Shown here: piece by piece, positions 36,682 to 62,441 of the stretch | Position numbering within the stretch: the stretch's first letter is position 1 | Layout: the number at the start of each line of letters is the position of its first letter | Sequence record: NC_052663.1 | Strand: one strand, 5' to 3' | Source: Escherichia phage VEcB | Length of the DNA stretch: 64,000 nucleotides | Notes under the pieces: model-generated | Databases searched by the model: none | What the model was told of the DNA's origin: nothing | The model's input: only the letters and a program-made list of their open reading frames with translations | Program-made: the position numbers and the translations under genes

Positions 36682-36699
36682 TAATCCTCCGTGGAAAAT

Positions 36700-47038: not shown

Positions 47039-47156
47039 TTGCTTTTCTCCTTTCATTTGGTATGCGCTAATCTTAACAAAATAAAAATGTATGTCAATAC
47101 TTGATTTGAAATTAGTTTCTGGTACTCTGTGTGTATCGTAACAAAAGAGGTTAGAT

Positions 47157-47447
47157 ATGAACATCACACTAGCAACTAAGAATATTACAGAAACTTTCGA
47201 TGGTTTTGGCATTATTATTGCTGTTCATGGGCATAACGAAAAATGGTTAGCCTCTTTTGAAGAGGACAAAGAACGCAATGTACGTTTGAATGCACCAATC
47301 AAAGTTTTACACCAGGTAGGTGAGAATAAGAAACAATGGAGATCATACAAAGAGTGGAACATTACAAACGAATTAATACACAAACTTGACAAAGTGATAA
47401 ACATGTTCGACAATGCACCAAGCAGTGCAAAACGTGTTTTACTATAA
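47157..47447 (+). CDS. Hypothetical small protein
   Basis: ORF track; first + strand gene after the strand switch. Confidence 0.35.
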   Translation: MNITLATKNITETFDGFGIIIAVHGHNEKWLASFEEDKERNVRLNAPIKVLHQVGENKKQWRSYKEWNITNELIHKLDKVINMFDNAPSSAKRVLL

Positions 47448-47458
47448 AGGAGAGTGAT

Positions 47459-47812
47459 ATGAAAATTGTACACGATGAAATTCAATTTGAAGAGAGTGAT
47501 CTTCTTGATCTGGATGTGACACTAAGTAAACTGATCTACAACGCACTTTCTGCATATCGTGCAAAAGTGATAGCCACAAACAATGTTAAAATTCCTAGCG
47601 GGTTACTTCGTCGGATGTACCCACACGCTAAAGGTGACTATCTACCTTATATGGAAGAACGAGCAGCAGAACACTGGTTAGAAATTCTTGAAAAAATGGA
47701 GTCCTCTTTTAAGGATTCAACCCCACCTGAAGAAGTTAATGAAAAACAACGGCAAGAGCGTTTAGAAGGTCGTATTTTGTTTGCTAAGTATTTCCATAAT
47801 TTGTGGAGCTAA
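47459..47812 (+). CDS. Hypothetical protein
   Basis: ORF track; RBS AAGGAGAG. Confidence 0.4.
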   Translation: MKIVHDEIQFEESDLLDLDVTLSKLIYNALSAYRAKVIATNNVKIPSGLLRRMYPHAKGDYLPYMEERAAEHWLEILEKMESSFKDSTPPEEVNEKQRQERLEGRILFAKYFHNLWS

Positions 47813-47910
47813 ACATAGCTGGTAAAATCACTTATATGTTCTTAGTATACTTGTGTAAAGAAGTTATCTAACAGGTGTTGAGTGGACTATTAAATTAGGA
47901 GGGCTTTAAT

Positions 47911-48249
47911 ATGTTTAGTAAAGAAATGAGAGAAGTAATTGCCACTTTGGTAGTTGATCATGGTGTTGAAGTTGAGCGTCACGTTTGGAACGATGAACCT
48001 CCTTTCTTCGATTTGGCATCACGAGCTAAAAGTCATATGCACCTGCTGGAAGACGGTAATGAGTTTGTTCTCCGTATGCGTTATGATCGAGAGTTTCGAA
48101 TTCCGCTTGACACTGAACCAGATGGTGTAGTAATGTGGTTGGCAGAACATTTCGCATACGATGCACTACATGGAAGAAGTTTTGGTAATGAGCGTTGGGA
48201 TGCCATTTGTCGTAAGCATAATATTGAACCAGAGTACGGAGTTTTATAA
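47911..48249 (+). CDS. Hypothetical protein
   Basis: ORF track; RBS AGGAGGG. Confidence 0.4.
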   Translation: MFSKEMREVIATLVVDHGVEVERHVWNDEPPFFDLASRAKSHMHLLEDGNEFVLRMRYDREFRIPLDTEPDGVVMWLAEHFAYDALHGRSFGNERWDAICRKHNIEPEYGVL

Positions 48250-48500
48250 TGTTAAGTATCAAACCTAAAATGATAACAGCAGATGAAGCAGACTTTATTT
48301 TCAAATGTGGACGTGTATGGAGAGAGTTCACAAAAGGGAATGAAGTGGTTGTTGTTGTCGAACACAAGATATCTATTCAGGATCTGTTTGGACAATATGT
48401 TGATGTTATTAAATTAGGTATTGACAAGGGTTTAGTTGAGGTGTTAACATTAGATCAAGTTGAAGCAGAGCACCTCGACAAAGTAGTGGTTGAATTTTAA
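48249..48500 (+). CDS. Hypothetical small protein
   Basis: ORF track; overlapping stop/start. Confidence 0.35.
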   Translation: MLSIKPKMITADEADFIFKCGRVWREFTKGNEVVVVVEHKISIQDLFGQYVDVIKLGIDKGLVEVLTLDQVEAEHLDKVVVEF

Positions 48501-48520
48501 AATACAGACGGGAGAAAGGT

Positions 48521-48694
48521 ATGAGTTTCTTTGTTACAGTATTTATGGCTATCTGGATTGTAGTCTCACTCGTTCTTTTCCTGGTGGGTTGTCTGGAAGA
48601 GATTAAGAAAGCGGTTATTTGCGGTTTCTTTGGCTTTATTATCTCTCCTGCCTGGATGTGGTTCTTCATTATGATTGGTTTCCTTAAAAGGTAA
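48521..48694 (+). CDS. Small membrane protein (57 aa, two hydrophobic helices), not in the ORF track
   Basis: ATG with GGGAGAAAGG RBS; strongly hydrophobic. Confidence 0.35.
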   Translation: MSFFVTVFMAIWIVVSLVLFLVGCLEEIKKAVICGFFGFIISPAWMWFFIMIGFLKR

Positions 48695-48708
48695 GTGAGG
48701 AATAAAGA

Positions 48709-49146
48709 ATGAGTAAAACAAACGCAATCGCAGATAAAGCAACGGATGTACTTCTGAACATGGTTAACGTCACTATTCAAACAATGAGTGATGTTGTGGA
48801 GTTTGGAAAACAACAAATTCCAGAAGTAATCCATCAATTGTTAGTGTGGAAAGCAGTATCCGCAGGTTTATGGCAACTTTTTAGTATTTGCTTTATGTTT
48901 ATTACTTTTATTGCTGTACGGAACCTCGTAAAAGCAATTAAAGATAAAGAATGCCTGTGGTCACGAGATCGCTATGGTGAAGTATCTGCTTTACCTATTG
49001 TTGGCCTTGTTGTCTGTGCTTTCTTTTTCTTTTTAGGATTTGTTATTTTCTTTTCGAATTTTGATTGGCTAAAAATCATTATTGCACCAAAAGTGTATCT
49101 GATTGAATTTGCTGCTGATTTAATTCGTTCATCTCAACAAAGATAA
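48709..49146 (+). CDS. Membrane protein
   Basis: Several hydrophobic segments; RBS GTGAGGAA. Confidence 0.4.
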   Translation: MSKTNAIADKATDVLLNMVNVTIQTMSDVVEFGKQQIPEVIHQLLVWKAVSAGLWQLFSICFMFITFIAVRNLVKAIKDKECLWSRDRYGEVSALPIVGLVVCAFFFFLGFVIFFSNFDWLKIIIAPKVYLIEFAADLIRSSQQR

Positions 49147-49158
49147 AAGGGGTTTAAA

Positions 49159-50286
49159 ATGAAATACACGATTTATGGTGATATTGTAAGTGTAAATAAA
49201 GATATGGGCGTGGAATCTAACTATCTTCCACCTGGATTCTATACTGTTAGTCGTGATCCCCTTGGCAATTATTTTTTAAGCCGTGGTAATCTGACAGGTG
49301 TACCGGATGTTCTGTATGGTGAAACAGAAAAACGAGCAAATCACGTTATTCGTACATTCCATCGCCGGAGTGCACAAGGTAAAAATACAGGCTTGCTTCT
49401 GACAGGAACTAAGGGCAGTGGTAAAACTATGTTAGCCAAACTCATTAGTCGTGACCTTGTAGAAGAAGGTATTCCAACTATTATGGTTACTCAAGCCTAC
49501 AGCGATGCTAATTTCATTGAACTTATTAGCAAGATCACCGACAAAGCAGTGATTATTTTTGACGAGTTTGATAAAGTATATGAGAAGAAACAAGATCAAG
49601 AAGCACTTCTCACTTTGTTAGATGGTACTGGCAGTGGTAATAAACTGTTTATTCTGACTAAAAACAGTGGTTTTATCTCTGAATTCTTTTTAAATCGTCC
49701 TAGTCGTGTGTTTTATAATTTTAATTATGATAAAATCTCACTAGAAACTATGATTGACTATTTAGATAAAAACCTGGATAACAAAGCACACTTTGATAAT
49801 TTCCAAAGACTTTGGGATGTAAGTTTAGAGTTGTCCTTTGATGTGATCCAAGGTATAGTAGAAGAACTTAATTTCTACCCTGATTTGTCCTTTAAAGAAT
49901 GCATCTCTATGATGGGCGTTTCTTTGGGTGGTGGTAATAAATGGGATATCAGCAGCGTTGTTATTAATGGGAAACTTCAGAAAGTTAGCTGGGTATCTAG
50001 TTGGCATAACTTTACACCTGCAATCTTTTTAGGTGGTTCGTGCACACTAGACGTGTATTTGTCATCTCCAAGTGATGCAGACTCTAAAGAAGCCCTTGCT
50101 AATAGCTCTTACGTGGTTTTTGATGATGAAGGCGATGCTCGAATTCCATTGAATGCGACAAAAATGAAAGCAGATCTTATCACAGGCGGTAAAATCGTTG
50201 TGTTTAGTGATGATCCAGAAGATTCTTTCCGTATTGTTCTGGAACCAACTATCACCAATGGTGCAACTTTGGCAAGTGTGTTTTAA
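49159..50286 (+). CDS. P-loop NTPase (AAA-like), paralog B
   Basis: Walker A GTKGSGKT, Walker B IIFDEFDK; colinear with 32464..33624; hairpin terminator downstream. Confidence 0.55.
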   Translation: MKYTIYGDIVSVNKDMGVESNYLPPGFYTVSRDPLGNYFLSRGNLTGVPDVLYGETEKRANHVIRTFHRRSAQGKNTGLLLTGTKGSGKTMLAKLISRDLVEEGIPTIMVTQAYSDANFIELISKITDKAVIIFDEFDKVYEKKQDQEALLTLLDGTGSGNKLFILTKNSGFISEFFLNRPSRVFYNFNYDKISLETMIDYLDKNLDNKAHFDNFQRLWDVSLELSFDVIQGIVEELNFYPDLSFKECISMMGVSLGGGNKWDISSVVINGKLQKVSWVSSWHNFTPAIFLGGSCTLDVYLSSPSDADSKEALANSSYVVFDDEGDARIPLNATKMKADLITGGKIVVFSDDPEDSFRIVLEPTITNGATLASVF

Positions 50287-50299: not shown

Positions 50300-50326
50300 T
50301 AAAAACCCGCTTCGGCGGGTTTTCTT
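50300..50326 (+). terminator. Rho-independent terminator after ATPase paralog B
   Basis: AAAACCCGC-TTCG-GCGGGTTTTCTT. Confidence 0.6.
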
Positions 50327-50360
50327 GCATTAATGCCAGATTTAATAAGAGGAGTAGTAG

Positions 50361-51350
50361 ATGGCAGCACCAAAATCATGGGAACAATATAAAGAAGAGT
50401 GTATACCAATAGCAGAGAGTAAGCAAATCCAAATCTTAGGATGGACGGGACAATGGAAAGGGGTCCACACAAAACTTGATTTGTTGTGCCATTGTGGTTA
50501 TAAATGGGATACTACAAGTATTAACAGTTTTAAATGTGGTAGCGGTTGTCCACAATGTAGGAGGAAGAATATAAGGAAGTCACAAACAATGTCCGACGAT
50601 CAACATATTGCAGATTTCTTTTCTACAGGGGAATTTAAGGAAGGCACTATCTTCACTAACACAGGAACACGGGGTAAAGGATGTAGGAATATTATCTGGA
50701 TGGTTGAATGTCCTGTTTGCTCTCATGATGAATATGTTCAAGCAGGTGTTTGTGATGGTAAATTTTACTCTGAAGGAGATAACCTTAAACGAGGGTATAT
50801 TCCGTGTCGTTGTGGGAACTATCGGTATACAGAAGACCAGATCACCTATAGGGTAAAAAAGGAAGTAGAAGGGAAAGGGTATGTCTGGGTAGATTGGATT
50901 ACCAAACCCTCTTCTATAGGTAAGTTTAAATATCTTTGTCTTGTGCATGGTGAGCAGATAGGGAGTGCTCATAATTTATTAAGCCTCGGTCGAGGTTGTC
51001 CTATGTGTGCTGGTCATAGTCAGCAGCAGTTATATATTAATATTGTTAAGGATGATAATATTATAGTTGCTCTTAAGTTTGGTATAGCTAAAGATAGTGA
51101 TAGACGATTAAAAATTCAAAATAGCCGTAATATGTTTCCTATGGAGCGTATTTGTTTATATGATTTTAGCACAGTAAAACAATGTAAGGCTGCTGAAAGA
51201 GCTATAAAGAAAAAATTAAAAACTGGTATTTTAACGGAAAGAGAGTTGAAAGACGGTTATACAGAAACAGTAAGTGTTTCTGATTTGGAAAATCTTCAAA
51301 AAATTATTACACAATATGGTGGCAAATTAGTATACAGTAAGGAGATGTAA
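50361..51350 (+). CDS. Zinc-ribbon-rich protein, possibly nuclease/homing-endonuclease-like
   Basis: Several CxxC pairs (CGSGCPQC, CPVCSHDE, CPMC); RBS AAGAGGAG. Confidence 0.3.
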   Translation: MAAPKSWEQYKEECIPIAESKQIQILGWTGQWKGVHTKLDLLCHCGYKWDTTSINSFKCGSGCPQCRRKNIRKSQTMSDDQHIADFFSTGEFKEGTIFTNTGTRGKGCRNIIWMVECPVCSHDEYVQAGVCDGKFYSEGDNLKRGYIPCRCGNYRYTEDQITYRVKKEVEGKGYVWVDWITKPSSIGKFKYLCLVHGEQIGSAHNLLSLGRGCPMCAGHSQQQLYINIVKDDNIIVALKFGIAKDSDRRLKIQNSRNMFPMERICLYDFSTVKQCKAAERAIKKKLKTGILTERELKDGYTETVSVSDLENLQKIITQYGGKLVYSKEM

Positions 51351-51902
51351 ATGCGGATTACTGATAAGTATGTGTTCTTCTTTTCAGCAAAAGATGAATT
51401 TAGCAACTGGTATCTATCATCTTTTATTGAACCTTTAGCACCCAAGTATAATAATTCTATTACAAGTTCTGTTGAATTTACTTGTGTGGAACAATATATG
51501 ATGTGGAGAAAAGCATGTTTGTTTTATGATTACAGTATTGCATCTTCTATTTTAACCGGAGATCTAAGATATACAGGAGAAAAAGAACAAGCATATTATA
51601 AGCGACTAGGCAGATTAGTTAAAGATTATGATGAAGATACCTGGACTTCTTTACGGGAGAAGATTGTCAAACGTGGTTTGTATCTTAAATACACACAAAA
51701 TGAAGATCTCAAAAATAAACTTATAACCTACGCAGATAAGGAGTTCGTAGAGGCAAGCCCTTATGATTCTATTTATGGTATCAAAATGGGGATGTGGGAT
51801 CGTGACGTGGAAAATAAGGACTGTTGGAAAGGACAAAATCTTTTAGGAAAATGGCATACAGACCTTGCTGTTTATCTAAAAGCACAATCTGATATTTCCT
51901 GA
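51351..51902 (+). CDS. NADAR-domain (YbiA-like) protein
   Basis: Motifs FFFSAKDEFSNWYLSSF and W..G.NLLGKWHTDL match the NADAR/DUF1768 family pattern; ATG overlaps the upstream stop. Confidence 0.55.
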   Translation: MRITDKYVFFFSAKDEFSNWYLSSFIEPLAPKYNNSITSSVEFTCVEQYMMWRKACLFYDYSIASSILTGDLRYTGEKEQAYYKRLGRLVKDYDEDTWTSLREKIVKRGLYLKYTQNEDLKNKLITYADKEFVEASPYDSIYGIKMGMWDRDVENKDCWKGQNLLGKWHTDLAVYLKAQSDIS

Positions 51903-53062: not shown

Positions 53063-53248
53063 AAAAGAAATGAAAAAAGATTAAAAAAGGGGTTGACGTT
53101 CCTCACCTGGTAGCGTATTATTCATCTTGTCGAGGGGGGCGAGGCACAACGACAATAAACAAAAGGAGGGCGCAATGTAGGACGGGCAAAGGTGAGGATC
53201 TCCACAATCCACCGTCACAATAACATTACTTATAAAAGGTTGATAACG

Positions 53249-53344
53249 ATGGTCAAGAAAGAAAACAGCTTGACGGTTGGAACGATTAACGCTATCATTC
53301 TCGCCGTTCCATTTTGGATTGTAGTTGCGGTTATTATTTTCTAA
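53249..53344 (+). CDS. Small hydrophobic peptide (31 aa), not in the ORF track
   Basis: ATG downstream of TTGACG-N17-TATTAT promoter-like sequence; single TM-like helix. Confidence 0.25.
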   Translation: MVKKENSLTVGTINAIILAVPFWIVVAVIIF

Positions 53345-53353
53345 AAAATATTC

Positions 53354-53413
53354 TTGACAACGTTTTTTAATCTGATAAGATGTATCACATAGGGCGGGAA
53401 ATGGTTTCCCGCC
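53354..53413 (+). promoter_or_regulatory. Sigma70-type promoter (TTGACA ... TAAGAT) plus conserved leader hairpin GGCGGGAAA-TGG-TTTCCCGCC
   Basis: -35 TTGACA, 16-nt spacer, -10 TAAGAT; perfect 9-bp stem with 3-nt loop starting near the predicted +1. Confidence 0.6.
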
Positions 53414-53435
53414 AAATCAAAGAAAGGGTAATGCA

Positions 53436-53798
53436 ATGAGCAAGCAAATCAATACTATCATGTTAAACCTGGTATCTTTCCGCGACGACGTGAAAAATCT
53501 TCCACGTGATGCAGTGGATGCACGGATCGAAAGCTATCGCTCACAGATCGCAACGCTACCGCTAAAACGTGATCAACATGCCGCTAATATGATGCTTAAT
53601 GCTATGCTTAAAAAGATGATTCAATGTGATCTTACCCTGGCTTATGAATATGCTGGCGATCTCTTTGTAACATATAGCAAGCCCGTACCAGGTATGAGCA
53701 CAACCGAAGAATTGCATGCCTTAAATCTGCGACAAGATGCATGGGATAACATGCGCCGTGTTATGGTATGGGTAGAAAGCGGTAAAATTTACGAATAA
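53436..53798 (+). CDS. Hypothetical early protein
   Basis: ORF track; preceded by sigma70 promoter plus conserved leader hairpin. Confidence 0.5.
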   Translation: MSKQINTIMLNLVSFRDDVKNLPRDAVDARIESYRSQIATLPLKRDQHAANMMLNAMLKKMIQCDLTLAYEYAGDLFVTYSKPVPGMSTTEELHALNLRQDAWDNMRRVMVWVESGKIYE

Positions 53799-53804
53799 AA
53801 ACGG

Positions 53805-53856
53805 TTGACATTGCACTAAAACCTGATAAACTATCTTAAAGCGGGAATAGTTCCCG
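53805..53856 (+). promoter_or_regulatory. Sigma70-type promoter (TTGACA ... TAAACT) plus hairpin variant AGCGGGAA-TA-GTTCCCGCT
   Basis: Same architecture as 53354-53413. Confidence 0.5.
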
Positions 53857-53875
53857 CTTACATAGGATAAAACTT

Positions 53876-54023
53876 TATGAAACAATATGTAATGAGTATT
53901 CACACCAAAAACGGCGCTACTGTTACGACTCCGGCACGGTTTGCACTTGTAAACCGTTGCAAGAGACTAAAACGAGAGCTAAAAAACAACCGTGCAACGG
54001 GCTTTAAACGCTGGGGAGGATAA
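53876..54023 (+). CDS. Candidate mini-ORF region (two overlapping ~43-aa frames, one Cys-rich, one basic); which is translated is unresolved
   Basis: Follows promoter plus hairpin at 53805-53856; weak RBS. Confidence 0.2.
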
Positions 54024-54025
54024 TC

Positions 54026-54286
54026 TTGTTTTTTCTAAAAGTTTTTGATAATGTGATCGCTTTTGAACATGCTACAACGTTCGACCTGGCGAGATACGCT
54101 ATCAGGTTTAAAGATAATGTTTATCCCCGTGCTGGCGGCGGTTACACTATTTTTAATCATCGTAATTCCCAACTAACGGATATAACTAATCCAGATCCGG
54201 GCGTGTATCGCATAGGCTGGCTACCGTCAAAAGACGCGGCAAGCATGTTTAAGGTATGTAAACTACTAACAGAAGAGGCGAACTAA
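54026..54286 (+). CDS. Hypothetical early protein (TTG start)
   Basis: GGGGAGGA RBS 5 nt upstream of TTG. Confidence 0.4.
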   Translation: MFFLKVFDNVIAFEHATTFDLARYAIRFKDNVYPRAGGGYTIFNHRNSQLTDITNPDPGVYRIGWLPSKDAASMFKVCKLLTEEAN

Positions 54287-54287
54287 C

Positions 54288-54842
54288 ATGGGGCGTGAGT
54301 ATGTGATCCAGTCCTGGGTAAAGCATGACGCTAATGATCCGCGCATAATACCAGATGACATGATCGATCACATGGTAGGGTATAGCGGGGAGCAGATAGG
54401 AAATCGAGCGGCAAAGAGCAACGGCAACACAAAGGCGCGATCCGTTCGCCCTGGTTGGCTGGCAAATGGTAACGCTGACATTGCAAGCGCCGCAGATCCA
54501 AGCGATGACGCTAAAAATAATCCCTTATACAGTATTGATCCGGCTTTTAAGGTGTTGGAAGAGTATCCCGCTAAATTAGCCGCACTAGATAAAGCATACG
54601 AAGAAAAACGGGTGGCATGGACGGTATACAACACCGCTAAAATGGTGCTAGATGCAAAATTGATTAAAGCCCAGGAGAAGATCAATAAACTTGTTGCAGT
54701 AGCGCAAGAGGAAGACCAGGACGACCAGGAGGAAGAGGAAGAAATCATGCCTACCCTGGAAGAGGAAGAGATCCAGCCATACATGCCGACGGAAGAGGAA
54801 AAAAGACAAGCCCTAAAAAATTATGAAAATTGTATTGTGTAA
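54288..54842 (+). CDS. Hypothetical early protein with strongly acidic C-terminal tail
   Basis: C-terminal EEDQDDQEEEEEIMPTLEEEEIQ. Confidence 0.45.
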   Translation: MGREYVIQSWVKHDANDPRIIPDDMIDHMVGYSGEQIGNRAAKSNGNTKARSVRPGWLANGNADIASAADPSDDAKNNPLYSIDPAFKVLEEYPAKLAALDKAYEEKRVAWTVYNTAKMVLDAKLIKAQEKINKLVAVAQEEDQDDQEEEEEIMPTLEEEEIQPYMPTEEEKRQALKNYENCIV

Positions 54843-54845
54843 GGC

Positions 54846-54951
54846 TTGACATATGCAAACAAGCCCCGTAATATGTACCACATAAAGCGGGGCAACGCCC
54901 CATAAGGTGAAATAAAAAATCACTTGACACCTGAAATCAGTAAGCTATAAT
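54846..54951 (+). promoter_or_regulatory. Tandem promoters: TTGACA-N17-TAATAT with hairpin variant (GCGGGGC-AAC-GCCCC), then consensus TTGACA-N16-TATAAT
   Basis: Two consensus -35 hexamers 78 bp apart, both upstream of the 59-aa ORF at 54989. Confidence 0.55.
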
Positions 54952-54988
54952 GCTTATATAGATTGAAACATTACTAAGGAATAAAAGC

Positions 54989-55168
54989 ATGGCTATTATT
55001 GCAAAGACTGAGATCGTAGGTTTAGATTCTATCATCCTGGCATATGAGGAAGCTATAGAAATGTATGTGGTTTCCTATGGTGATTATATCCGTGAATATA
55101 AATCTATTGATCTAGCTTTTGAATGCTATATTCGCCAGGTCAATAAAGCCTATGATGATTATCGTTAA
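54989..55168 (+). CDS. Small early protein (59 aa), not in the ORF track
   Basis: ATG with AAGGA RBS; tandem promoters upstream. Confidence 0.4.
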   Translation: MAIIAKTEIVGLDSIILAYEEAIEMYVVSYGDYIREYKSIDLAFECYIRQVNKAYDDYR

Positions 55169-55187
55169 AAGTTTTAGTCTTGTGCTA

Positions 55188-55216
55188 TTGACAACGAACG
55201 ATAGTACAAGCATAAT
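55188..55216 (+). promoter_or_regulatory. Sigma70-type promoter (TTGACA-N17-CATAAT)
   Basis: Consensus -35; upstream of 55264..55629. Confidence 0.5.
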
Positions 55217-55263
55217 AACTTTTATCGGGAATACTCCTAACTAATCAAAAGAGATTAAAGACT

Positions 55264-55629
55264 ATGGCTAAAAATATCAATGTTTCTGCTTATGCTACCC
55301 TGGCTAACACTGCTAAAATTGAACTATCCAGCATTGAAGCGGTACATATTAGCGCCCGTCGCTGGTTTCAAAAGTCTTATGGTAACACTTATTTCTCTTT
55401 GATGGTTGACGTTGAGATCGGCGGTAAACTGATTGAAGTCGTTAACGTTCCGTTTCAATATGGCTACGGGGATCATTTTGATACCGTTGCCCTAGAAGAG
55501 TTTAGCAAGGTTATCAACCTGGAAGGTAAAGAATTTTCAAATTATGCCTACCTTTCCCGTTTTTGCCGTGACAATGGGATCACTGTATACAGTCATGCAA
55601 GCGATGTTAAACGTAAAAAAGATTTATAA
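55264..55629 (+). CDS. Hypothetical early protein
   Basis: ORF track; own promoter (TTGACA ... CATAAT). Confidence 0.45.
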   Translation: MAKNINVSAYATLANTAKIELSSIEAVHISARRWFQKSYGNTYFSLMVDVEIGGKLIEVVNVPFQYGYGDHFDTVALEEFSKVINLEGKEFSNYAYLSRFCRDNGITVYSHASDVKRKKDL

Positions 55630-55635
55630 AAAGCA

Positions 55636-55696
55636 TTGACAGCACGAATAAAAAGCATATAATACTTATATCGAGAGCGGGAATAGTTCCCGCCTC
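55636..55696 (+). promoter_or_regulatory. Consensus sigma70 promoter (TTGACA-N16-TATAAT) plus hairpin GAGCGGGAA-TA-GTTCCCGCCTC
   Basis: Perfect -35 and -10 hexamers; hairpin near +1. Confidence 0.6.
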
Positions 55697-55717
55697 ACTG
55701 AAAAAGAGATTAACATC

Positions 55718-55957
55718 ATGGCTAAATCTAAAATGTTCTTAGGTCACAAAAACAAAACTCATTGGAATGTAAGCCTTTGGATCAACAACGATGAAGGTTT
55801 TTATAATCTTGCGCGTGAATTTATCGCAGCTAACACCAATAAGAATGACGCAGCGCGTGATATGATGTTATTTCTTGAAAGTATGGATCAAGATAAAACG
55901 CCAGACGGTTACAAGTTCAGTAAAACCGCGATCCGTGCCGCTATGGTTGGAATGTAA
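55718..55957 (+). CDS. Hypothetical early protein
   Basis: ORF track; promoter TTGACA-N16-TATAAT plus hairpin upstream. Confidence 0.45.
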   Translation: MAKSKMFLGHKNKTHWNVSLWINNDEGFYNLAREFIAANTNKNDAARDMMLFLESMDQDKTPDGYKFSKTAIRAAMVGM

Positions 55958-56052
55958 AGGAGACATAAAAATGAAACATCGTTCGACCTATCTCACAAAA
56001 CGTTTTAGCTTAGATCATAAATTGGGCTATTACGGAAGAAATAGAAAATAAT

Positions 56053-56112
56053 TTGACAACGTTTTAAATTAGTGTAAGATATATCACATAGGGCGGGAAA
56101 TGGTTTCCCGCC
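56053..56112 (+). promoter_or_regulatory. Sigma70-type promoter plus canonical leader hairpin; near-identical copy of the 53354-53430 element
   Basis: About 45 bp (ATCACATAGGGCGGGAAATGGTTTCCCGCCAAATCAAAGAAAGG) identical to the leader of 53436..53798. Confidence 0.6.
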
Positions 56113-56134
56113 AAATCAAAGAAAGGTTATCATT

Positions 56135-56362
56135 ATGGCTATCGTTATTGTTCGCGTATCCGGTACGGTTGGAATCTCTCAGGTAGTAGCAGTTATCACA
56201 GAGAAGAAAGGGGATGATCTTCACTCCTCCTTGAATAGCTGGGCGGTCGCTAACTTTGGGCAATGGTCGAGCGTTGAGTACATCGAAGCCTACCAGGTGC
56301 CGACGATTAGCCTAACCGATCTAAATGTTGATCGCTTGTTGTGCCTGGATGGATTAAACTAA
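56135..56362 (+). CDS. Hypothetical early protein
   Basis: ORF track; promoter/leader nearly identical to that of 53436..53798. Confidence 0.45.
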   Translation: MAIVIVRVSGTVGISQVVAVITEKKGDDLHSSLNSWAVANFGQWSSVEYIEAYQVPTISLTDLNVDRLLCLDGLN

Positions 56363-56370
56363 AAATAATC

Positions 56371-56427
56371 TTGACAAGATAACTAAAATCAGTAAAATGT
56401 AATGCATAGGGCGGCAATAGTGCCGCT
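56371..56427 (+). promoter_or_regulatory. Sigma70-type promoter (TTGACA-N16-TAAAAT) plus hairpin GGGCGGCA-ATA-GTGCCGCTC
   Basis: Same architecture; hairpin variant shared with 60181-60237. Confidence 0.55.
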
Positions 56428-56449
56428 CATAGTAAGAGAGATTATCAAA

Positions 56450-56665
56450 ATGGCTAATATCCGCACACTGTTAAAAAATGCAAGTCAAGTTTTATTTTCA
56501 GATGACGAGTATTTCAACAAAGACATTACAGGCGTGAAAAATTTAAAAGACGTGAAGGATGTTATCGGTATCCGTGGATCTTTACGTAAAGGTGACATAT
56601 ACGGTAACAAGGTGCAATATAAACTGTCAAAAGATTATGATTTTACTTTGACATTTATTTCATAA
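56450..56665 (+). CDS. Hypothetical early protein (start at internal ATG after the leader hairpin)
   Basis: Track ORF N-terminus is the translated hairpin; ATG with AGAGAG RBS. Confidence 0.45.
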   Translation: MANIRTLLKNASQVLFSDDEYFNKDITGVKNLKDVKDVIGIRGSLRKGDIYGNKVQYKLSKDYDFTLTFIS

Positions 56666-56671
56666 AACCGC

Positions 56672-56732
56672 TTGCAATACTGCAAAAATAAAGTAAACTG
56701 TATTCATCAAGGCGGTGGAATAGCTCACCGCC
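56672..56732 (+). promoter_or_regulatory. Sigma70-type promoter (TTGCAA-N16-TAAACT) plus hairpin GGCGGTG-GAATAGCT-CACCGCC
   Basis: Same architecture with a divergent loop. Confidence 0.5.
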
Positions 56733-56756
56733 TAACAAAGAGAAGAGGAAAACATC

Positions 56757-56927
56757 ATGATCACTTTCGCCACCCGTGAAGCCGCTCGCAACGTTGCACG
56801 TAAAGTTAATGCCGCCAACCTGGGCGCTACGCTTAAAGCCCCGGTAAAAGATGAATCAGGAAAATGGATCTTCCCTGGTCTGCGTCACGCTGATAAGCTG
56901 GGAACATTAACGTTAAAAAATAAATAA
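56757..56927 (+). CDS. Small early protein (56 aa), not in the ORF track
   Basis: ATG with AAGAGGAAAA RBS; promoter plus hairpin upstream. Confidence 0.4.
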   Translation: MITFATREAARNVARKVNAANLGATLKAPVKDESGKWIFPGLRHADKLGTLTLKNK

Positions 56928-56934
56928 TATCCGC

Positions 56935-56993
56935 TTGACAGTAGCATGATTTATAAGTAAAGTAACAACAACGGCGGGAAATGGTTTCCCGCC
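56935..56993 (+). promoter_or_regulatory. Sigma70-type promoter (TTGACA-N17-TAAAGT) plus canonical hairpin GGCGGGAAA-TGG-TTTCCCGCC
   Basis: Canonical hairpin identical to the 53392 and 61294 copies. Confidence 0.55.
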
Positions 56994-57013
56994 ATCAATA
57001 AAGAGATAAGATT

Positions 57014-57373
57014 ATGAAATCAGCAAAAGCAATTAAAACTTACATTGTGTCGGCTATTTCTTTTGAAGGTACTACAACAGAAAAAGAAAAGATCACCGAA
57101 CTGATGCGCCGTTTTAACTCTGAATACTGGTATCCCGATAATCAAAAACGTTACAATTATAACGTGATCAAGGCGATAGCCTCATGGTTACAAGGTTTAC
57201 CGTCAGACATTAACATCGCCTTTGATTATAACGAGATTGATCATTTATTAATTGAATGGAAGTACATAAAAGAAACAAGCAAAGAAACAACCGTTACCCG
57301 TGAGCGGGAAAATTATTGGTTATATATTGCAAGCATGATCGTAATCCTGGCAAAACAGCATAACGTGGCGTAA
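57014..57373 (+). CDS. Hypothetical early protein
   Basis: ORF track; promoter plus canonical hairpin upstream. Confidence 0.45.
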   Translation: MKSAKAIKTYIVSAISFEGTTTEKEKITELMRRFNSEYWYPDNQKRYNYNVIKAIASWLQGLPSDINIAFDYNEIDHLLIEWKYIKETSKETTVTRERENYWLYIASMIVILAKQHNVA

Positions 57374-57388
57374 TTAAGAGGAAGAAAC

Positions 57389-57526
57389 ATGAACGCATCA
57401 CAGCAGATCGAAAAATTCAACCGCAGCAAGGCGCGTAAAGATTGGAACGAAGAGATCACCAAAAAAGGCGACAAGCGGAACAAAACAAAAAGAGATCGCA
57501 GCACAAAAAGATACTGGAACGAATAA
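57389..57526 (+). CDS. Small highly basic protein (45 aa), not in the ORF track
   Basis: ATG with AAGAGGAAG RBS; K/R-rich; immediately followed by a rho-independent terminator. Confidence 0.4.
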   Translation: MNASQQIEKFNRSKARKDWNEEITKKGDKRNKTKRDRSTKRYWNE

Positions 57527-57530
57527 CAAA

Positions 57531-57556
57531 AAAGGGCGCAATAAGCGCCCTTTTAG
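57531..57556 (+). terminator. Rho-independent terminator
   Basis: GGGCGC-AATAA-GCGCCC followed by TTTT. Confidence 0.6.
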
Positions 57557-57644
57557 CTTATATAGAGGCTTGTTACCCATAGGCAATGGTAACGCCAGGA
57601 TAAGCCTATAAACCACGTTAGACAGCTTTACAGGAGCTTTAAAA

Positions 57645-57827
57645 ATGAAATTAGACGAAATAAGCAAGGCACTAGCCCAGGGGCAAAGGTTATGCGCCCG
57701 ATATCGTGATCAATATGGCTTCATAACCAGCGGCGTGATCCTGGGGATTGAAGGCAATAAGATTTTTATTGACACGTTGAAAAACGTTGTATATAGTGAC
57801 AATATAATCTCAATAAAACATATATGA
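57645..57827 (+). CDS. Hypothetical small protein
   Basis: ORF track. Confidence 0.4.
   Translation: MKLDEISKALAQGQRLCARYRDQYGFITSGVILGIEGNKIFIDTLKNVVYSDNIISIKHI
57769..57797 (+). promoter_or_regulatory. Sigma70-type promoter (TTGACA-N17-TATAGT) embedded in the 3' end of ORF 57645..57827
   Basis: Consensus hexamers; drives the signal-peptide gene at 57836. Confidence 0.45.
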
Positions 57828-57835
57828 GGCAAGAA

Positions 57836-58237
57836 ATGAAAAAATTATTGATCGCTGGTTTAATCTCTTTTGGCATGGTTGGAACATCTAGCGCGGCGAT
57901 ATCCTCCACAGTAGCAGAATTAAGCGCCGTTGATGCAATGGAAAACGTCATGCTTATTAATAATGCGATCCCCGATGAAATCATGGAGGATTCACACATG
58001 ATCGCTTATGGTGCTGTTACACAACTAACGGCAAAAATAGATAAATCTATTGTTAACGGCTTAAATGAAGATGTGCCATGTGAAATTATTACCAGTGTGC
58101 TGACTACTCAAAATTTTACGCCGTGGTTAAAAAGTATTCAAAAAGTACACAGTACAGCCGCAGATCGTAGTAATGAAAAACTAGTGTCAGCACTTGCAAC
58201 GTATACCCTAGCAAAATGCACCGAGATAAAAGATTGA
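57836..58237 (+). CDS. Predicted secreted/periplasmic protein
   Basis: Signal peptide MKKLLIAGLISFGMVGTSSA; promoter TTGACA-N17-TATAGT inside the 3' end of the upstream ORF. Confidence 0.45.
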   Translation: MKKLLIAGLISFGMVGTSSAAISSTVAELSAVDAMENVMLINNAIPDEIMEDSHMIAYGAVTQLTAKIDKSIVNGLNEDVPCEIITSVLTTQNFTPWLKSIQKVHSTAADRSNEKLVSALATYTLAKCTEIKD

Positions 58238-58262
58238 CAACATAGAAAGCACGTTATAAGAT
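58234..58262 (+). promoter_or_regulatory. Sigma70-type promoter (TTGACA-N17-TAAGAT), no hairpin
   Basis: Consensus -35; upstream of 58285..58587. Confidence 0.5.
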
Positions 58263-58284
58263 ACACACAACAAAGGAGAACTAC

Positions 58285-58587
58285 ATGAACGGCATAGCTA
58301 AAACGTTTTTTCTTTTTTCTGGTGTAAATGATCCATCAATAAAAGTCGATAGTGTAAAAGAAAACAATACTATCACCGCTAAATTGTTTCAAGATGAAAC
58401 AAATAACGTGCTAATCATTAATCTTAAAGAAATAACGAAAGGTTATTATACTATTGCTTACCATGCAATCTATCATGCTGGTACTAGTGAGGAAGTGCAA
58501 ACAAGCAACAACGAAAGCGCGGCGCTACCTGGTGATCTGGTGCTGGGCGTTATCAGTTTAATTGTCAATGATTTTTTTAAGGAGTAA
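58285..58587 (+). CDS. Hypothetical protein
   Basis: ORF track; promoter TTGACA ... TAAGAT upstream; RBS AAAGGAG. Confidence 0.45.
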   Translation: MNGIAKTFFLFSGVNDPSIKVDSVKENNTITAKLFQDETNNVLIINLKEITKGYYTIAYHAIYHAGTSEEVQTSNNESAALPGDLVLGVISLIVNDFFKE

Positions 58588-58591
58588 AACC

Positions 58592-58687
58592 ATGCCCTAT
58601 TTACATTTATTTTTCGGGATCTTATTGTCAGGATCTTTTTTCTTCTGTATACTTGTTTCTATTGTAAACCACGTTTTAAGACATTAA
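58592..58687 (+). CDS. Small hydrophobic peptide (31 aa), not in the ORF track
   Basis: ATG 4 nt after the upstream stop; RBS AAGGAG embedded in the upstream gene end. Confidence 0.3.
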   Translation: MPYLHLFFGILLSGSFFFCILVSIVNHVLRH

Positions 58688-58696
58688 GGAAACAAC

Positions 58697-58816
58697 ATGA
58701 AAATTATTCCCGTACAGTATAGCGTAATAAATCCAGCATATGAGGAAGGAAGGAAAACAAGCATGGTTTTATGTTATATTGCTACTATAGCCATGTTGTT
58801 ATATATTGTGTTTTAA
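58697..58816 (+). CDS. Small peptide with C-terminal hydrophobic helix (39 aa), not in the ORF track
   Basis: ATG with AAGGAAAC RBS. Confidence 0.3.
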   Translation: MKIIPVQYSVINPAYEEGRKTSMVLCYIATIAMLLYIVF

Positions 58817-58845
58817 TAGGTTTTATAGTTGTACGCTTTAAAGGC

Positions 58846-58880
58846 TTGACAATTTTTTGTTATGCTTTAAACTATATCTT
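58846..58880 (+). promoter_or_regulatory. Sigma70-type promoter (TTGACA ... TAAACT)
   Basis: Consensus -35; upstream of 58917..59240. Confidence 0.45.
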
Positions 58881-58916
58881 GAAAACGGCAAAGGCCGCAA
58901 ACAAAAGGGTAAAATT

Positions 58917-59240
58917 ATGAAATCTGTGATCGGTGTTTATTTGGATAACTCTGATTTTTTCTATCATCGCGCTCGTTTCCTTGATGCGATTGAAATGATA
59001 GAATCAGGCTTTAAAGAGTATCGCCTTGCACATGATGACCTGGAAGCATTACAGGGCAATAGTGTTTTTACATTGCAAGCTAAAGCACTATGCAAAAGCC
59101 GAATCGACATTGCGAGCAAAAAGATAGAACGCGGCATGTCCTGGTTGCGCACCGCAGAAATCAACATGGGGCAATGGTACGGCGAAAACTTAGAAAATAA
59201 ACATGCTTTTGTCAATGTAGAAAATATTGAAGATTATTGA
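58917..59240 (+). CDS. Hypothetical early protein (start at internal ATG)
   Basis: Promoter TTGACA at ~58846; RBS AAAGGGTAAAA. Confidence 0.45.
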   Translation: MKSVIGVYLDNSDFFYHRARFLDAIEMIESGFKEYRLAHDDLEALQGNSVFTLQAKALCKSRIDIASKKIERGMSWLRTAEINMGQWYGENLENKHAFVNVENIEDY

Positions 59241-59302
59241 TTGACAGCACACTGAACGGGTAGTATATTGTATCTCATAGAGCGGGGAAATGGTTTCCCC
59301 GC
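59241..59302 (+). promoter_or_regulatory. Sigma70-type promoter (TTGACA-N17-TATATT) plus hairpin GCGGGGAAA-TGG-TTTCCCCGC
   Basis: Same architecture. Confidence 0.55.
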
Positions 59303-59322
59303 CTTAAAAGAAGAGATAAGCT

Positions 59323-59607
59323 ATGAAGATCACAAAAGCACTTTCCAACTATGCAGCACGTCGCGGCTTATGTTTAACCGTTGAAAACCTGGGGAAAGAA
59401 GATTTTTTGTGCTTTTGGGAGCTTGAGAATGATAATGAGTGGATCTTCTCTTATTCTATCTGCGAAGATCAAAACGGTTGTTTATTAACCTGGCGCGGTA
59501 ATATCTATCTACCGGAAGAAATCAAAGAAGAATTGCCAGGCACGATCATGACTGAGAAACAGCTTAAGGAAGTGATTAATTTTGTAGGGCAAAACATTAA
59601 AAAATAA
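59323..59607 (+). CDS. Hypothetical early protein
   Basis: ORF track; promoter plus hairpin upstream. Confidence 0.45.
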   Translation: MKITKALSNYAARRGLCLTVENLGKEDFLCFWELENDNEWIFSYSICEDQNGCLLTWRGNIYLPEEIKEELPGTIMTEKQLKEVINFVGQNIKK

Positions 59608-59608
59608 T

Positions 59609-59668
59609 TTGACACTAGGCAAACAACGTAGTAAAGTTTATCACATAGGGCGGGAAATGGTTTCCCGC
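59609..59668 (+). promoter_or_regulatory. Sigma70-type promoter (TTGACA-N17-TAAAGT) plus hairpin GGGCGGGAAA-TGG-TTTCCCGC
   Basis: Same architecture. Confidence 0.55.
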
Positions 59669-59691
59669 TCACAACAGAAGAGAAACACATC

Positions 59692-59862
59692 ATGATCCCG
59701 ACTATGTTTTACGTATCGCGCAAAGGTCACAATATTTTTTGGTCTGAAGATTTAAATGAAGCCATGACGTTTGCCCGTGATCGTGTTGCTATCGGTGGCG
59801 TTAACATTACTGTAACCGATGAAAACGGCATTGAATACTATAACGGCGACGATGAAGAGTAA
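59692..59862 (+). CDS. Small early protein (56 aa), not in the ORF track
   Basis: ATG with AGAAGAGAAA RBS after promoter plus hairpin. Confidence 0.4.
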   Translation: MIPTMFYVSRKGHNIFWSEDLNEAMTFARDRVAIGGVNITVTDENGIEYYNGDDEE

Positions 59863-59869
59863 TTAATAA

Positions 59870-59890
59870 GGCGGGGGAGTATTCCCCGCC
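59870..59890 (+). promoter_or_regulatory. Leader-type hairpin (GGCGGGGGA-GTA-TTCCCCGCC) without an adjacent consensus promoter
   Basis: Occurs between a stop codon and the RBS of 59910..60179. Confidence 0.4.
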
Positions 59891-59909
59891 GTCAATAAAG
59901 AGGTAAATC

Positions 59910-60179
59910 ATGAAAATATCTTTGGACGTTGCAATCAAGGCCATCGAATCCGGTTACACCCTGGTTAAAGATGATAAGGCTAAAACCGTGCACCACGTTA
60001 ACAAGGAAACAGGCGAAAGCATGATCACATATAAAGCCGCCTACTTTCTCCAATCAGTAGCAGATCCGCGCGTACAACGCCAGGTTACGGCGGCTATTGC
60101 TAAAAAATTATGTGCTTTACAGGGTATAAGTTTTAACGAGATCGCCCCGTGTTTTGACTGGTCGAGCTTGAAAAAATAG
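59910..60179 (+). CDS. Hypothetical early protein
   Basis: ORF track; preceded by a leader-type hairpin without an obvious promoter. Confidence 0.45.
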   Translation: MKISLDVAIKAIESGYTLVKDDKAKTVHHVNKETGESMITYKAAYFLQSVADPRVQRQVTAAIAKKLCALQGISFNEIAPCFDWSSLKK

Positions 60180-60180
60180 T

Positions 60181-60237
60181 TTGACAACAATTATAAATCG
60201 GGTAGAATGTATTTCGTAGGGCGGCAATAGTGCCGCT
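60181..60237 (+). promoter_or_regulatory. Sigma70-type promoter (TTGACA-N16-TAGAAT) plus hairpin GGGCGGCA-ATA-GTGCCGCTC
   Basis: Hairpin identical to the 56408-56427 copy. Confidence 0.55.
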
Positions 60238-60259
60238 CATAACTAAAAGAGAAATCAGC

Positions 60260-60454
60260 ATGGCGCTTAAAAAACTAACAAGCAATACTCGTTGGGATGA
60301 AATCGACGGAGAAGTTTACATTTTCGCCCGTAAACCAGGTGATCAAAAATGGTCAAAGGCTTTTACTTGCCACCCTGCAACAATAGATCTAATAAAAAGT
60401 AAAGGTTTACGTGAAGCGGTAGCAAGAAGTTTACTGATCCCTTATAAAAAATAG
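60260..60454 (+). CDS. Hypothetical small protein (start at internal ATG)
   Basis: Promoter TTGACA-N16-TAGAAT plus hairpin upstream. Confidence 0.4.
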   Translation: MALKKLTSNTRWDEIDGEVYIFARKPGDQKWSKAFTCHPATIDLIKSKGLREAVARSLLIPYKK

Positions 60455-60455
60455 T

Positions 60456-60517
60456 TTGACAATACGCGGTTATCTGGTAAAGTGTACGACATAGGGCGGG
60501 GCAATAAGGCAACGCCC
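60456..60517 (+). promoter_or_regulatory. Sigma70-type promoter (TTGACA-N16-TAAAGT) plus degenerate GC-rich hairpin
   Basis: Same architecture. Confidence 0.45.
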
Positions 60518-60535
60518 ATTAATGAGGGTAGAATC

Positions 60536-60640
60536 ATGTTAGAGAAAATTTTCACGGTTGTAGTAGTTGGCCTGGCGTTATCGGTTGGATTGGTTGCAAC
60601 TATGGCTAACATGATCCTATCTTCCCACGGTATTGGATAA
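60536..60640 (+). CDS. Small hydrophobic peptide (34 aa), not in the ORF track
   Basis: ATG with GAGGG RBS; single TM-like helix. Confidence 0.3.
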   Translation: MLEKIFTVVVVGLALSVGLVATMANMILSSHGIG

Positions 60641-60650
60641 GGTGAATCAA

Positions 60651-60866
60651 ATGATCACGAATAAGACAGGTAAAACAGAATTTTTACGCGGCTTGCAAAT
60701 AGGTAAGCCTGAGATCTGGCATTGCACTAAATCCGCGCATAATGAAATGAAAGATTTTACCGCTACTTTACAACGTGTTAAAATATCTATCACACAGAAA
60801 AAAGCCTTGTTAGTAGTAGAAAACGAGATACCGCAAACCATTATTATTGTCGAGCGTACAGCATGA
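60651..60866 (+). CDS. Hypothetical small protein (start at internal ATG)
   Basis: RBS AAGGTGA. Confidence 0.4.
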   Translation: MITNKTGKTEFLRGLQIGKPEIWHCTKSAHNEMKDFTATLQRVKISITQKKALLVVENEIPQTIIIVERTA

Positions 60867-61249
60867 AAACAGAAATCATTATTGAAATCATCAACGGTTA
60901 TAAAGAAGCCTTTATTTTTGCTGAATCAGCCAGGGATCATGAAGGTAATTTTATTGATAACTTAGACGATTATGATTTTTCAGATCAAGCCCACCAGCGG
61001 ATCATTCATGACGTAGCGGCTTATTGTGATGCCAATGATGCTGCTATCTCTGAGGCAATGAGCGACGGCGCAACAGCAAACCAGATCGGGAATGATTTAC
61101 ATTTTACCCGTAACGGTCACGGCGTAGGCTTTTGGGATCGCCCTGAAATATACACTACTAACACCGCCAACCGCCTAACAAATGCAGCTAAATTAATGCC
61201 ATCGGTGCATGCTTACATTGGTGAAGATAATTTGATTTATATCGAATAA
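60863..61249 (+). CDS. Hypothetical acidic protein
   Basis: ORF track; overlapping stop/start; D/E-rich. Confidence 0.4.
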   Translation: MKTEIIIEIINGYKEAFIFAESARDHEGNFIDNLDDYDFSDQAHQRIIHDVAAYCDANDAAISEAMSDGATANQIGNDLHFTRNGHGVGFWDRPEIYTTNTANRLTNAAKLMPSVHAYIGEDNLIYIE

Positions 61250-61255
61250 AAAGTA

Positions 61256-61314
61256 TTGACACCGATCCCCAATATGGTATTATTTACCACGTAGGCGGGA
61301 AATGGTTTCCCGCC
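61256..61314 (+). promoter_or_regulatory. Sigma70-type promoter (TTGACA-N16-TATTAT) plus canonical hairpin
   Basis: Canonical GGCGGGAAA-TGG-TTTCCCGCC. Confidence 0.6.
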
Positions 61315-61337
61315 AGGTAATCAAAAAGGTAAATACT

Positions 61338-61727: not shown

Positions 61728-61740
61728 TACACGGTAAAAG

Positions 61741-61770
61741 AAAGGGGCGCACTAAGCGCCCTTTTTTTTT
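61741..61770 (+). terminator. Rho-independent terminator
   Basis: GGGGCGC-ACTAA-GCGCCC followed by a T9 run. Confidence 0.7.
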
Positions 61771-62115: not shown

Positions 62116-62144
62116 TTGACCGATAAATCATAACCGTTTAATAT
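62116..62144 (+). promoter_or_regulatory. Sigma70-type promoter (TTGACC-N17-TAATAT)
   Basis: Near-consensus hexamers upstream of 62193..62429. Confidence 0.45.
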
Positions 62145-62192
62145 TGTTTTTAGAGGGTAGAACATACCCAAAACGAAAACAGGAAAAAGAAA

Positions 62193-62429: not shown

Positions 62430-62441
62430 TTAACTTTCTTA

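Follow-up and report, generated by a model that had tools for sequence, protein, structure and literature searches.

AAA ATPases of the classical clade (Pfam PF00004) include the D2 module of p97/Cdc48, NVL/Rix7, AFG2, NSF, FtsH and Rpt/PAN. Bcs1, a mitochondrial AAA protein, translocates the Rieske protein in its folded state across the inner membrane. Some AAA rings, such as Rpt1-6, Pex1/Pex6 and Yta10/Yta12, are hetero-oligomeric. Docking through the tail is represented by HslU, whose tails dock on HslV, and by the HbYX tails that dock on the 20S proteasome. Among phages, members of PHROG 2376 are labelled 'AAA superfamily ATPase' in Herelleviridae, 7-11-like phages, CBB-like jumbo phages and Stephanstirmvirinae. 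PHROG 2376 is a large family without a characterized member; literature searches on the function, essentiality or expression of the protein studied here found nothing.

Here we analyze two members of this family encoded in a 64,000-nucleotide stretch of the genome of Escherichia phage VEcB (NC_052663.1; hereafter, the window), which shares 96-99% identity with numerous Escherichia phages from the genus Justusliebigvirus (phi92-like myoviruses of the Stephanstirmvirinae). Paralog B, a classical-clade AAA ATPase matching phrog_2376, is encoded by an ORF that, as the sequence-only reading had it, occupies exactly 49159..50286 on the + strand (ATG start; 375 aa plus stop). Paralog A (32464..33624, - strand; 386 aa), assigned to the same family from the ORF list, BLASTP, Pfam and PHROG, is placed directly after nrdD-nrdG within a nucleotide-metabolism block. 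The GC content of both genes matches the composition of the window (0.374 for B, 0.389 for A and 0.377 for the window). Proteins 100% identical to B are encoded in more than 50 deposited Justusliebigvirus genomes, and the names given to these proteins range from 'hypothetical protein' and 'ATPase' to 'putative ATPase or Zn metalloprotease' and 'FtsH-like protease'.

Both proteins match the Pfam AAA family above its gathering score of 21.2 bits (38.9 bits for B and 29.4 for A) and the profile phrog_2376, annotated 'ATPase', from end to end, with E values of about 6.6e-108 for B (its residues 1-367 covering positions 1-357 of the 363 in the profile) and about 4e-104 for A (profile positions 2-359 of 363). 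The top matches in a profile search against the PDB were p97/Cdc48 D2, NVL/Rix7, AFG2, NSF and Bcs1 (E values from 3e-13 to 2e-7), and a fold search with the AlphaFold (AF2) model of B agreed with the classical AAA assignment, the nearest relatives by sequence and fold being the protein-remodelling AAA rings p97/Cdc48, Bcs1, Rpt, FtsH and NSF. The PDB profile alignments extend from Walker A to 'RPGR' and include 'LLTLLDG', all hallmarks of the classical clade. That A and B belong to PHROG 2376 and to this clade is nearly certain from sequence profiles and the modelled fold.

Several other ATPase groups were tried and rejected. Matches to STAND NTPases were confined to the P-loop core, with nSTAND5 at 29.5 bits against a cutoff of 34 and NACHT at 22.6 against 26.7; nSTAND3 was passed marginally, by B only (29.3 against 27.2 bits), and this match, too, covers the P-loop core alone. 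The best PADLOC match to an anti-phage defence ATPase had an E value of 8.5e-4 and involved P-loop-only stretches. Helicase-loader, clamp-loader and Hda models all scored below their curated cutoffs: Hda reached 29.8 bits (cutoff 194.8), IstB 19.9 (200), DnaI 14.7 (228), DnaX 13 (250) and RFC 12.8 (303). These scores bear on an alternative suggested by database records of some relatives, 'putative DNA replication protein' and 'DnaC', namely, that the family consists of replication accessory ATPases, be they helicase loaders of the DnaC/IstB type, clamp-loader-like proteins or Hda-like regulators of initiation. We consider a replication role unlikely: not only are the Hda, IstB and DnaX scores far below the cutoffs, but classical AAA proteins give the best matches in both sequence and fold, the RPxR arginines and LLTxxDG align with p97/Cdc48, and the 80 metagenomic loci surveyed below show no conserved neighbour that encodes a helicase, primase or clamp, with B itself located amid small genes of unknown function and not among replication genes.

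The AF2 monomer model of B has a pLDDT of 90.6 (87-98 per block in the N-terminal part), and conservation was assessed in an alignment of 104 homologous sequences, to which the invariant residues listed here refer. The protein starts with a small beta domain of five short strands in the model (aa 1-45; 49159..49293, + strand, as are all the features of B that follow), succeeded by the linker motif YG.T...A.RI..TF..R and a helix (aa 56-72); the conserved columns of this N-terminal part are P24, L40, Y53, G54, T66 and R70. The AAA module contains the Walker A motif, or P-loop, G83-T-K-G-S-G-K89-T90 (49405..49428), in which G83, G86, G88 and K89 are invariant; the Walker B motif V-I-I-F-D135-E136 (49549..49566), with D135 and E136 invariant; a family-specific motif, Q147...LTLLDG; sensor-1, T167-K-N169 (49657..49665), with N169 invariant; and the second region of homology, N179-R180-P-S-R183 (RPxR; 49693..49707), with R180 and R183 invariant. 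In the HMM alignment to p97 D2, NRPSR of B aligns with RPGR of p97/Cdc48. The alpha-helical lid, delineated from the AF2 secondary structure (aa 195-252; 49741..49914), carries the motif FD.l...vEE.NrY, in which F227, D228 and N238 are invariant.

A profile alignment to 'MWFG' of p97 D2 places the equivalent of pore loop 1 at A113-Y114-S115-D116 (49495..49506). The loop at this position is shorter than that of p97 and reads Y-S-D in B and F-N-G in A. Position 114 is occupied by F, W or Y in about 85% of 122 sequences (Y in B, F in A), and position 116 by G in 82 and by D in 32 of the same 122, the B clade being among the latter.

The lid is followed by a family-specific C-terminal beta domain (aa 255-367; 49921..50259), the fastest-diverging part of the protein, for which a structure search found no counterpart among solved structures, and by a disordered tail ending in ...LASVF (aa 368-375, pLDDT below 50; 50260..50283). 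The last residue is aromatic in 143 of 194 family members (74%, against an aromatic background of 11%) and hydrophobic in 182 of the 194 (94%). This conserved aromatic tail looks like a docking tail, though not an HbYX motif: B ends in ...A-S-V-F and lacks the penultimate Tyr.

B is a soluble AAA ATPase of the classical type, with a single AAA module and beta domains at its periphery, and an ordinary member of PHROG 2376, length and domain order being alike across thousands of members. It shares with the classical AAA proteins the Walker A and B motifs, the sensor-1 Asn, the 'LLTxxDG' helix and the paired-arginine RPxR second region of homology, but differs from them in having one AAA module, a non-canonical loop at the pore position (A-Y-S-D in B, A-F-N-G in A) and unique N- and C-terminal beta domains. 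The likeness to Bcs1 does not extend beyond the AAA module: the structural alignment is limited to about 209 residues of that module, with only 16-19% identity, Pfam BCS1_N has no match in B, and neither the N-terminal membrane anchor nor the Bcs1-specific domain is present. A link to membranes, prompted by the Bcs1 match and by two membrane proteins encoded 5' of B, was not found in the family, where 12.7% of the upstream genes encode membrane proteins against a background of 16.7% (p = 0.35); upstream membrane proteins are therefore not a family feature.

Several GenBank records name these proteins as FtsH-like ATP-dependent zinc metalloproteases, and their AAA module is indeed similar to that of FtsH. 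Both proteins, however, lack the protease domain that defines this group, which refutes the identity and makes the 'FtsH-like protease / Zn metalloprotease' annotations wrong; we give it next to no probability. The HEXXH motif is absent from both A and B, Peptidase_M41 does not appear among the Pfam matches even at E<=1, the region after the lid is all-beta and has no protease fold match, and the N-terminus consists of beta strands (residues 1-45) in a confident AF2 model, not of transmembrane helices.

B resembles PAN/Rpt, Mpa and HslU in its ring-type AAA fold, in the small beta domain N-terminal to the AAA module and in its flexible C-terminal tail, the last residue of which is conserved as aromatic or hydrophobic. 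The disordered tail, its terminal residue across the 194 members and the similarity of the fold to the Rpt/PAN/Mpa ATPases raise the alternative that the protein serves as the unfoldase component of a two-part protease, the aromatic tail docking into a peptidase ring of the host or the phage, to which substrates would be fed. We find this reading very unlikely because the S-V-F tail of B is not a strict HbYX motif, PAN/proteasome-ATPase models score far under the cutoff (PAN, 14.6 bits against 500 for A, and not listed for B), a beta domain of about 110 aa separates the lid from the tail, unlike in known docking ATPases, and a peptidase gene is not a conserved neighbour in the 80 loci. B further differs from PAN/Rpt, Mpa and HslU in having no coiled coil.

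A profile search against 1.84 billion representative proteins retrieved, at E<=1e-30, 3,332 clusters (50% identity), nearly all of them of 350-400 aa and matching end to end. Among isolated phages, the gene is found in Stephanstirmvirinae, CBB-like and other jumbo phages, 7-11-like podoviruses, Aeromonas and Acinetobacter phages, Herelleviridae, large lactococcal and staphylococcal siphoviruses and Microbacterium phages. Unusually long family members carry only N-terminal extensions without Pfam matches, apart from one member with a LAGLIDADG intein adjacent to the P-loop; a check of these long members for domain fusions thus gave no functional clue. When the ORFs within 6 kb on either side of the gene were clustered for 80 IMG/VR metagenomic viral loci, no conserved operonic partner emerged, the top neighbours being a macro domain protein (13 of about 75), NAMPT (11) and a NMNAT-like protein (7).

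The sequence-only reading had proposed that A and B are a diverged pair of P-loop ATPase paralogs on opposite strands, and this proposal is borne out: BLASTP aligned aa 3-256 of B with aa 2-253 of A at 119 identities in 254 positions (47%; E 1e-81), a similarity well above chance expectation, and both proteins carry a P-loop (GTKGSGKT). The C-terminal ~120 aa yielded no pairwise BLASTP alignment, but the C-domain profiles of the B clade and the A clade matched each other in HHalign over 108 columns (probability 94.4%, E 8.7e-8), against a probability of 0.7% for a mismatched-domain control pair. The N-domains alone gave no signal in HHalign with their short profiles; this we treat as a failure of short profiles and not as counter-evidence to homology because the N-domain already lies within the BLASTP alignment of A and B. 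Given that both proteins match phrog_2376 in full and that their C-domain profiles match each other, we conclude from sequence comparison that A and B are homologous end to end, that is, true, diverged paralogs. Identity is highest in the AAA core (55%), followed by the lid (45%), the N-domain (29%) and the C-domain (about 25%), and the catalytic motifs, namely, Walker A, Walker B, sensor-1 and the RPxR arginine pair, are by their sequence intact in both copies.

A neighbour-joining tree of the 256 conserved residues places A and B in separate clades that are sisters, each of which holds orthologs from other phages of about 150 kb, with the proteins of CBB-like jumbo phages outside both. A third clade (P0024-29) is sister to A; its best match in the isolated-phage collection is 46% identical to A, and none is close. 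Both copies are present in every Justusliebigvirus genome and in one unclassified Klebsiella phage of the Stephanstirmvirinae, and Phapecoctavirus has a single copy, 64.5% identical to B. The Phapecoctavirus copy is syntenic with B: it is located ~2.4 kb into the + strand operon that starts from the same divergent intergenic region and is followed, as B is, by a homolog of the CapR-repeat/T5orf172 gene. The ortholog of A is syntenic in Klebsiella phage phi1_175008, in the order helicase ... ribonucleotide-reductase genes - ATPase - small ORF ... hydrolase, and A is syntenic also in EmilieFrey. Because the positions of A and B are each syntenic in other genera or lineages, the duplication is old, with both positions fixed.

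The pair could also be viewed as two subunits of one hetero-oligomeric ring, a reading compatible with the remodelling model favoured below. In its favour, the catalytic and arginine-finger residues are kept in both copies, A and B co-occur in every Justusliebigvirus genome and in the Klebsiella relative, independent cases of two copies occur in Lactobacillus phages, and the best-conserved part (55% identity) is the core, which holds the ring interfaces. A hetero-ring nevertheless appears improbable, considering that the genes are 15.5 kb apart, on opposite strands and in separate terminator-bounded units, and that Phapecoctavirus and most other phages have a single copy, so that homomeric function would be the ancestral state.

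The - strand block that contains A and the + strand operon that contains B both start at a divergent intergenic region of 116 bp (47041..47156), defined from the sequence, alignment and the annotation of EmilieFrey and nieznany. The region is conserved between Justusliebigvirus and Phapecoctavirus in the alignment; neither a strong sigma-70 consensus nor a recognizable promoter class was found in its sequence or alignment. Six small close-packed genes precede B (47157..49146, + strand; ORFs, PHROG and Pfam scans, gap and promoter map), among which the scans detected DUF7325, four unknown PHROGs and two small membrane proteins. The stop codon of the last of these genes (49144-49146) is separated from B by 12 nt that include a ribosome-binding site read from the sequence, AAGGGG (49147..49152, + strand), 6 nt before the ATG; with the neighbour's stop just 5' of this site, B is translationally close-packed in the operon, and the six genes and B likely constitute a co-transcription unit. 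The CapR-repeat/T5orf172 gene and a NADAR gene lie 3' of B, beyond its terminator.

The sequence-only reading had assigned B to a + strand early block followed by a strong terminator and had supposed from this a schedule different from that of A. The strong intrinsic terminator held up: direct folding of the sequence after B, in agreement with a purpose-made hairpin scan, gives a hairpin, AAAACCCGC-TTCG-GCGGGTTTT, followed by CTTG (50302..50330, + strand; hairpin 50302-50323), with a T-rich tail, a free energy of -17.8 kcal/mol and a z score of -3.16. Phapecoctavirus nieznany has a hairpin of a different sequence (GCCCC-GCAA-GGGGC plus Ts) at the same position, which supports the terminator of B being real. 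A generic terminator scan reported nothing after B; this is an artefact, the hairpin having been overlooked because the stem extension took in the T-run. Directly after A, folding gives a hairpin, AAAGGAGGC-GAAA-GCCTCCTTT, followed by ATTTAT (32436..32457, - strand), at -18.8 kcal/mol and a z score of -4.43, with none of 200 shuffled sequences as stable; its counterpart in the Klebsiella phage keeps the position with a different stem. The whole window contains only about eight such hairpins per strand. A and B thus each close a separate transcription unit with a terminator of conserved position, and the terminator does not set B apart because that of A is equally strong and also conserved in position.

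The placement of B in an early block found no support. The nine near-consensus sigma-70 promoters on the + strand (at least 11 of 12 positions) all lie between 54.9 and 62.4 kb, and almost all + strand gaps between about 53.1 and 62.5 kb hold a TTGACA-type promoter (10-12 of 12), so that the promoter-dense, early-looking array of small genes lies outside the B operon (47157-50286), within which there is no sigma-70 promoter of at least 10 of 12. Between the operon and the array lie the terminator of B, two genes (CapR/T5orf172 and NADAR) and 1.5 kb of sparse sequence. The only near-consensus sigma-70 site close to A or B is upstream of A: TTGACA-17-TATGAT (11 of 12; 33732..33760, - strand), within the 3' end of nrdG and 136 nt upstream of the ATG of A, is possibly an internal promoter for A. 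For the 'late' motif of rV5, TggTAaAAtA, 22 occurrences were counted where 11.4 would be expected, and one of them, at 47820, falls within the B operon; the signal is too weak and too unspecific to serve as a basis for timing. The supposition of a schedule different from that of A, drawn from the terminator, is likewise unsupported, the terminator of A being equally strong and both blocks starting from one region. Literature searches found no transcript data for the phi92-like phage group; A and B may be expressed at different times, and the sequence does not decide.

As a whole, the observations are best explained, in our moderately confident view, by a ring-type protein-remodelling AAA ATPase, with A and B acting on different targets; the threading mechanism and the idea of different targets are much less certain than the assignment to family and clade. 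By analogy with the classical clade, subunits of B would assemble into a ring in which the arginines of one subunit complete the ATP site of its neighbour, and ATP hydrolysis would drive the pulling, unfolding or disassembly of a protein substrate, with the conserved aromatic side chain at the pore-loop position making the contact. The choice of substrate or partner would fall to the peripheral beta domains, and because these domains have diverged most, A and B would most likely act on different targets. The aromatic C-terminal tail would probably dock onto a partner or an adjacent subunit. A more specific proposal, speculative and rather unlikely as formulated, is that PHROG 2376 is a phage-specific unfoldase or disassembly machine in which the fast-evolving C-domain selects host targets, such as takeover or anti-defence substrates, and the conserved aromatic tail docks the machine to a partner, the two copies in phi92-like phages serving different targets.

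The finding is modest in that dozens of deposited phage genomes already contain a 100% identical gene, named 'ATPase' or 'hypothetical protein', and part of its value is corrective, as it removes the erroneous annotation as a protease. It also gives orientation: the pair of ATPase genes in phi92-like phages is an old, syntenically fixed duplication, with divergence mostly in the peripheral domains, and A and B belong to a very large phage family of uniform architecture that falls in the protein-remodelling branch of AAA ATPases and has a C-terminal domain without a counterpart among solved structures. If the unfoldase reading is correct, PHROG 2376 would be among the commonest uncharacterized phage enzymes, given its more than 3,000 clusters across myo-, sipho- and podoviruses and jumbo phages infecting Gram-positive as well as Gram-negative hosts. 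Determination of the substrate would allow thousands of phage genes to be annotated at once.

Paralog B, the AAA ATPase gene at 49159..50286 (+), is immediately preceded in its operon by genes for two small predicted membrane proteins (48521..49146, +) of 57 aa and 145 aa, the latter belonging to phrog_3054 and showing an additional, weak match to phrog_1486 'membrane protein'. At this place upstream of the ATPase, Phapecoctavirus encodes a signal-peptide protein and a small membrane protein that differs from these two, and a search across the ATPase family did not find a link between membrane proteins and the ATPase. Directly past the terminator of paralog B, the gene at 50361..51350 (+) encodes a protein that contains two CapR homology domains (PF21817, E 2e-25) and a T5orf172 domain and also matches phrog_681 'endonuclease'. 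The Phapecoctavirus homolog is located in the same position but is longer (486 aa), with more Zn-ribbon/CapR repeats.

Genes implicated in NAD and ADP-ribose metabolism are found near both ATPase genes. A NADAR-domain (YbiA-like) protein is encoded near paralog B (51351..51902, +; PF08719, E 6e-36), and just downstream of paralog A (32464..33624, -), at ~29.8-30.5 kb (-), are genes for a macro-domain protein, a phosphoribosyltransferase and a HAD hydrolase, according to the annotation of phage EmilieFrey. In distant phages, the ATPase gene is often located within 6 kb of genes encoding macro-domain (13 loci), NAMPT (11) or NMNAT-like (7) proteins, the counts being out of ~75 in an analysis of 80 metagenomic viral loci. 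These genes do not form an operon with the ATPase gene but are loosely co-located with it.

Near paralog A, the anaerobic ribonucleotide reductase gene nrdD (34112..36711, -) is split, with the break at position 263 of the Pfam NRDD profile, whereas nrdD of EmilieFrey is an uninterrupted gene of 1830 nt. The N-terminal half (35815..36711, -) and the C-terminal half, which includes the glycyl-radical domain (34112..35083, -), are separated by an insert of ~730 bp. Within the insert, an ORF at 35206..35715 yields HNH_3 and I-HmuI-NUMOD-like matches, each slightly under the Pfam cutoff, and a group I intron match (RF00028, 35104-35211) is likewise sub-threshold (39.3 bits vs the gathering threshold of 50; E 3e-8 for a search space of 1.1 kb). 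The insert probably represents a mobile group I intron carrying a homing endonuclease, resembling the T4 nrdD intron with its homing endonuclease.

A dense array of small genes spans 53093..62470 (+), where almost all intergenic gaps contain a promoter of the TTGACA-N16-18-TATAAT type (score 10-12/12). Two of these promoters, located at 54924 and 55636, match perfectly (12/12), and there are also several hairpin terminators (57530-57554, 61745-61761, 62916-62934). Within the window, the array is the best candidate for an early region transcribed by host RNA polymerase.

Two GenBank records, MG065656 and MG065689 (H17 and H58), encode proteins 99.5-100% identical to those of E. coli Justusliebigvirus, but carry the names 'Campylobacter phage C3' and 'Campylobacter phage A110a', with C. 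jejuni as the host and a length of 146,366 bp. The host or organism label looks doubtful, and the records perhaps represent an E. coli phage contaminant.

Elsewhere in the ATPase family, a 727-aa member from the representative-protein profile search (P0199) contains a LAGLIDADG/Hom_end intein adjoining the P-loop (PF05204, E 4e-11; PF14528), a position that fits with strong conservation of the P-loop region as a functional site. Two places matching the ATPase were also detected in each of the Lactobacillus phages LpeD (NC_048677) and SAC12B (MK504446), both of the Herelleviridae type, which suggests that the ATPase family was duplicated independently in unrelated lineages.
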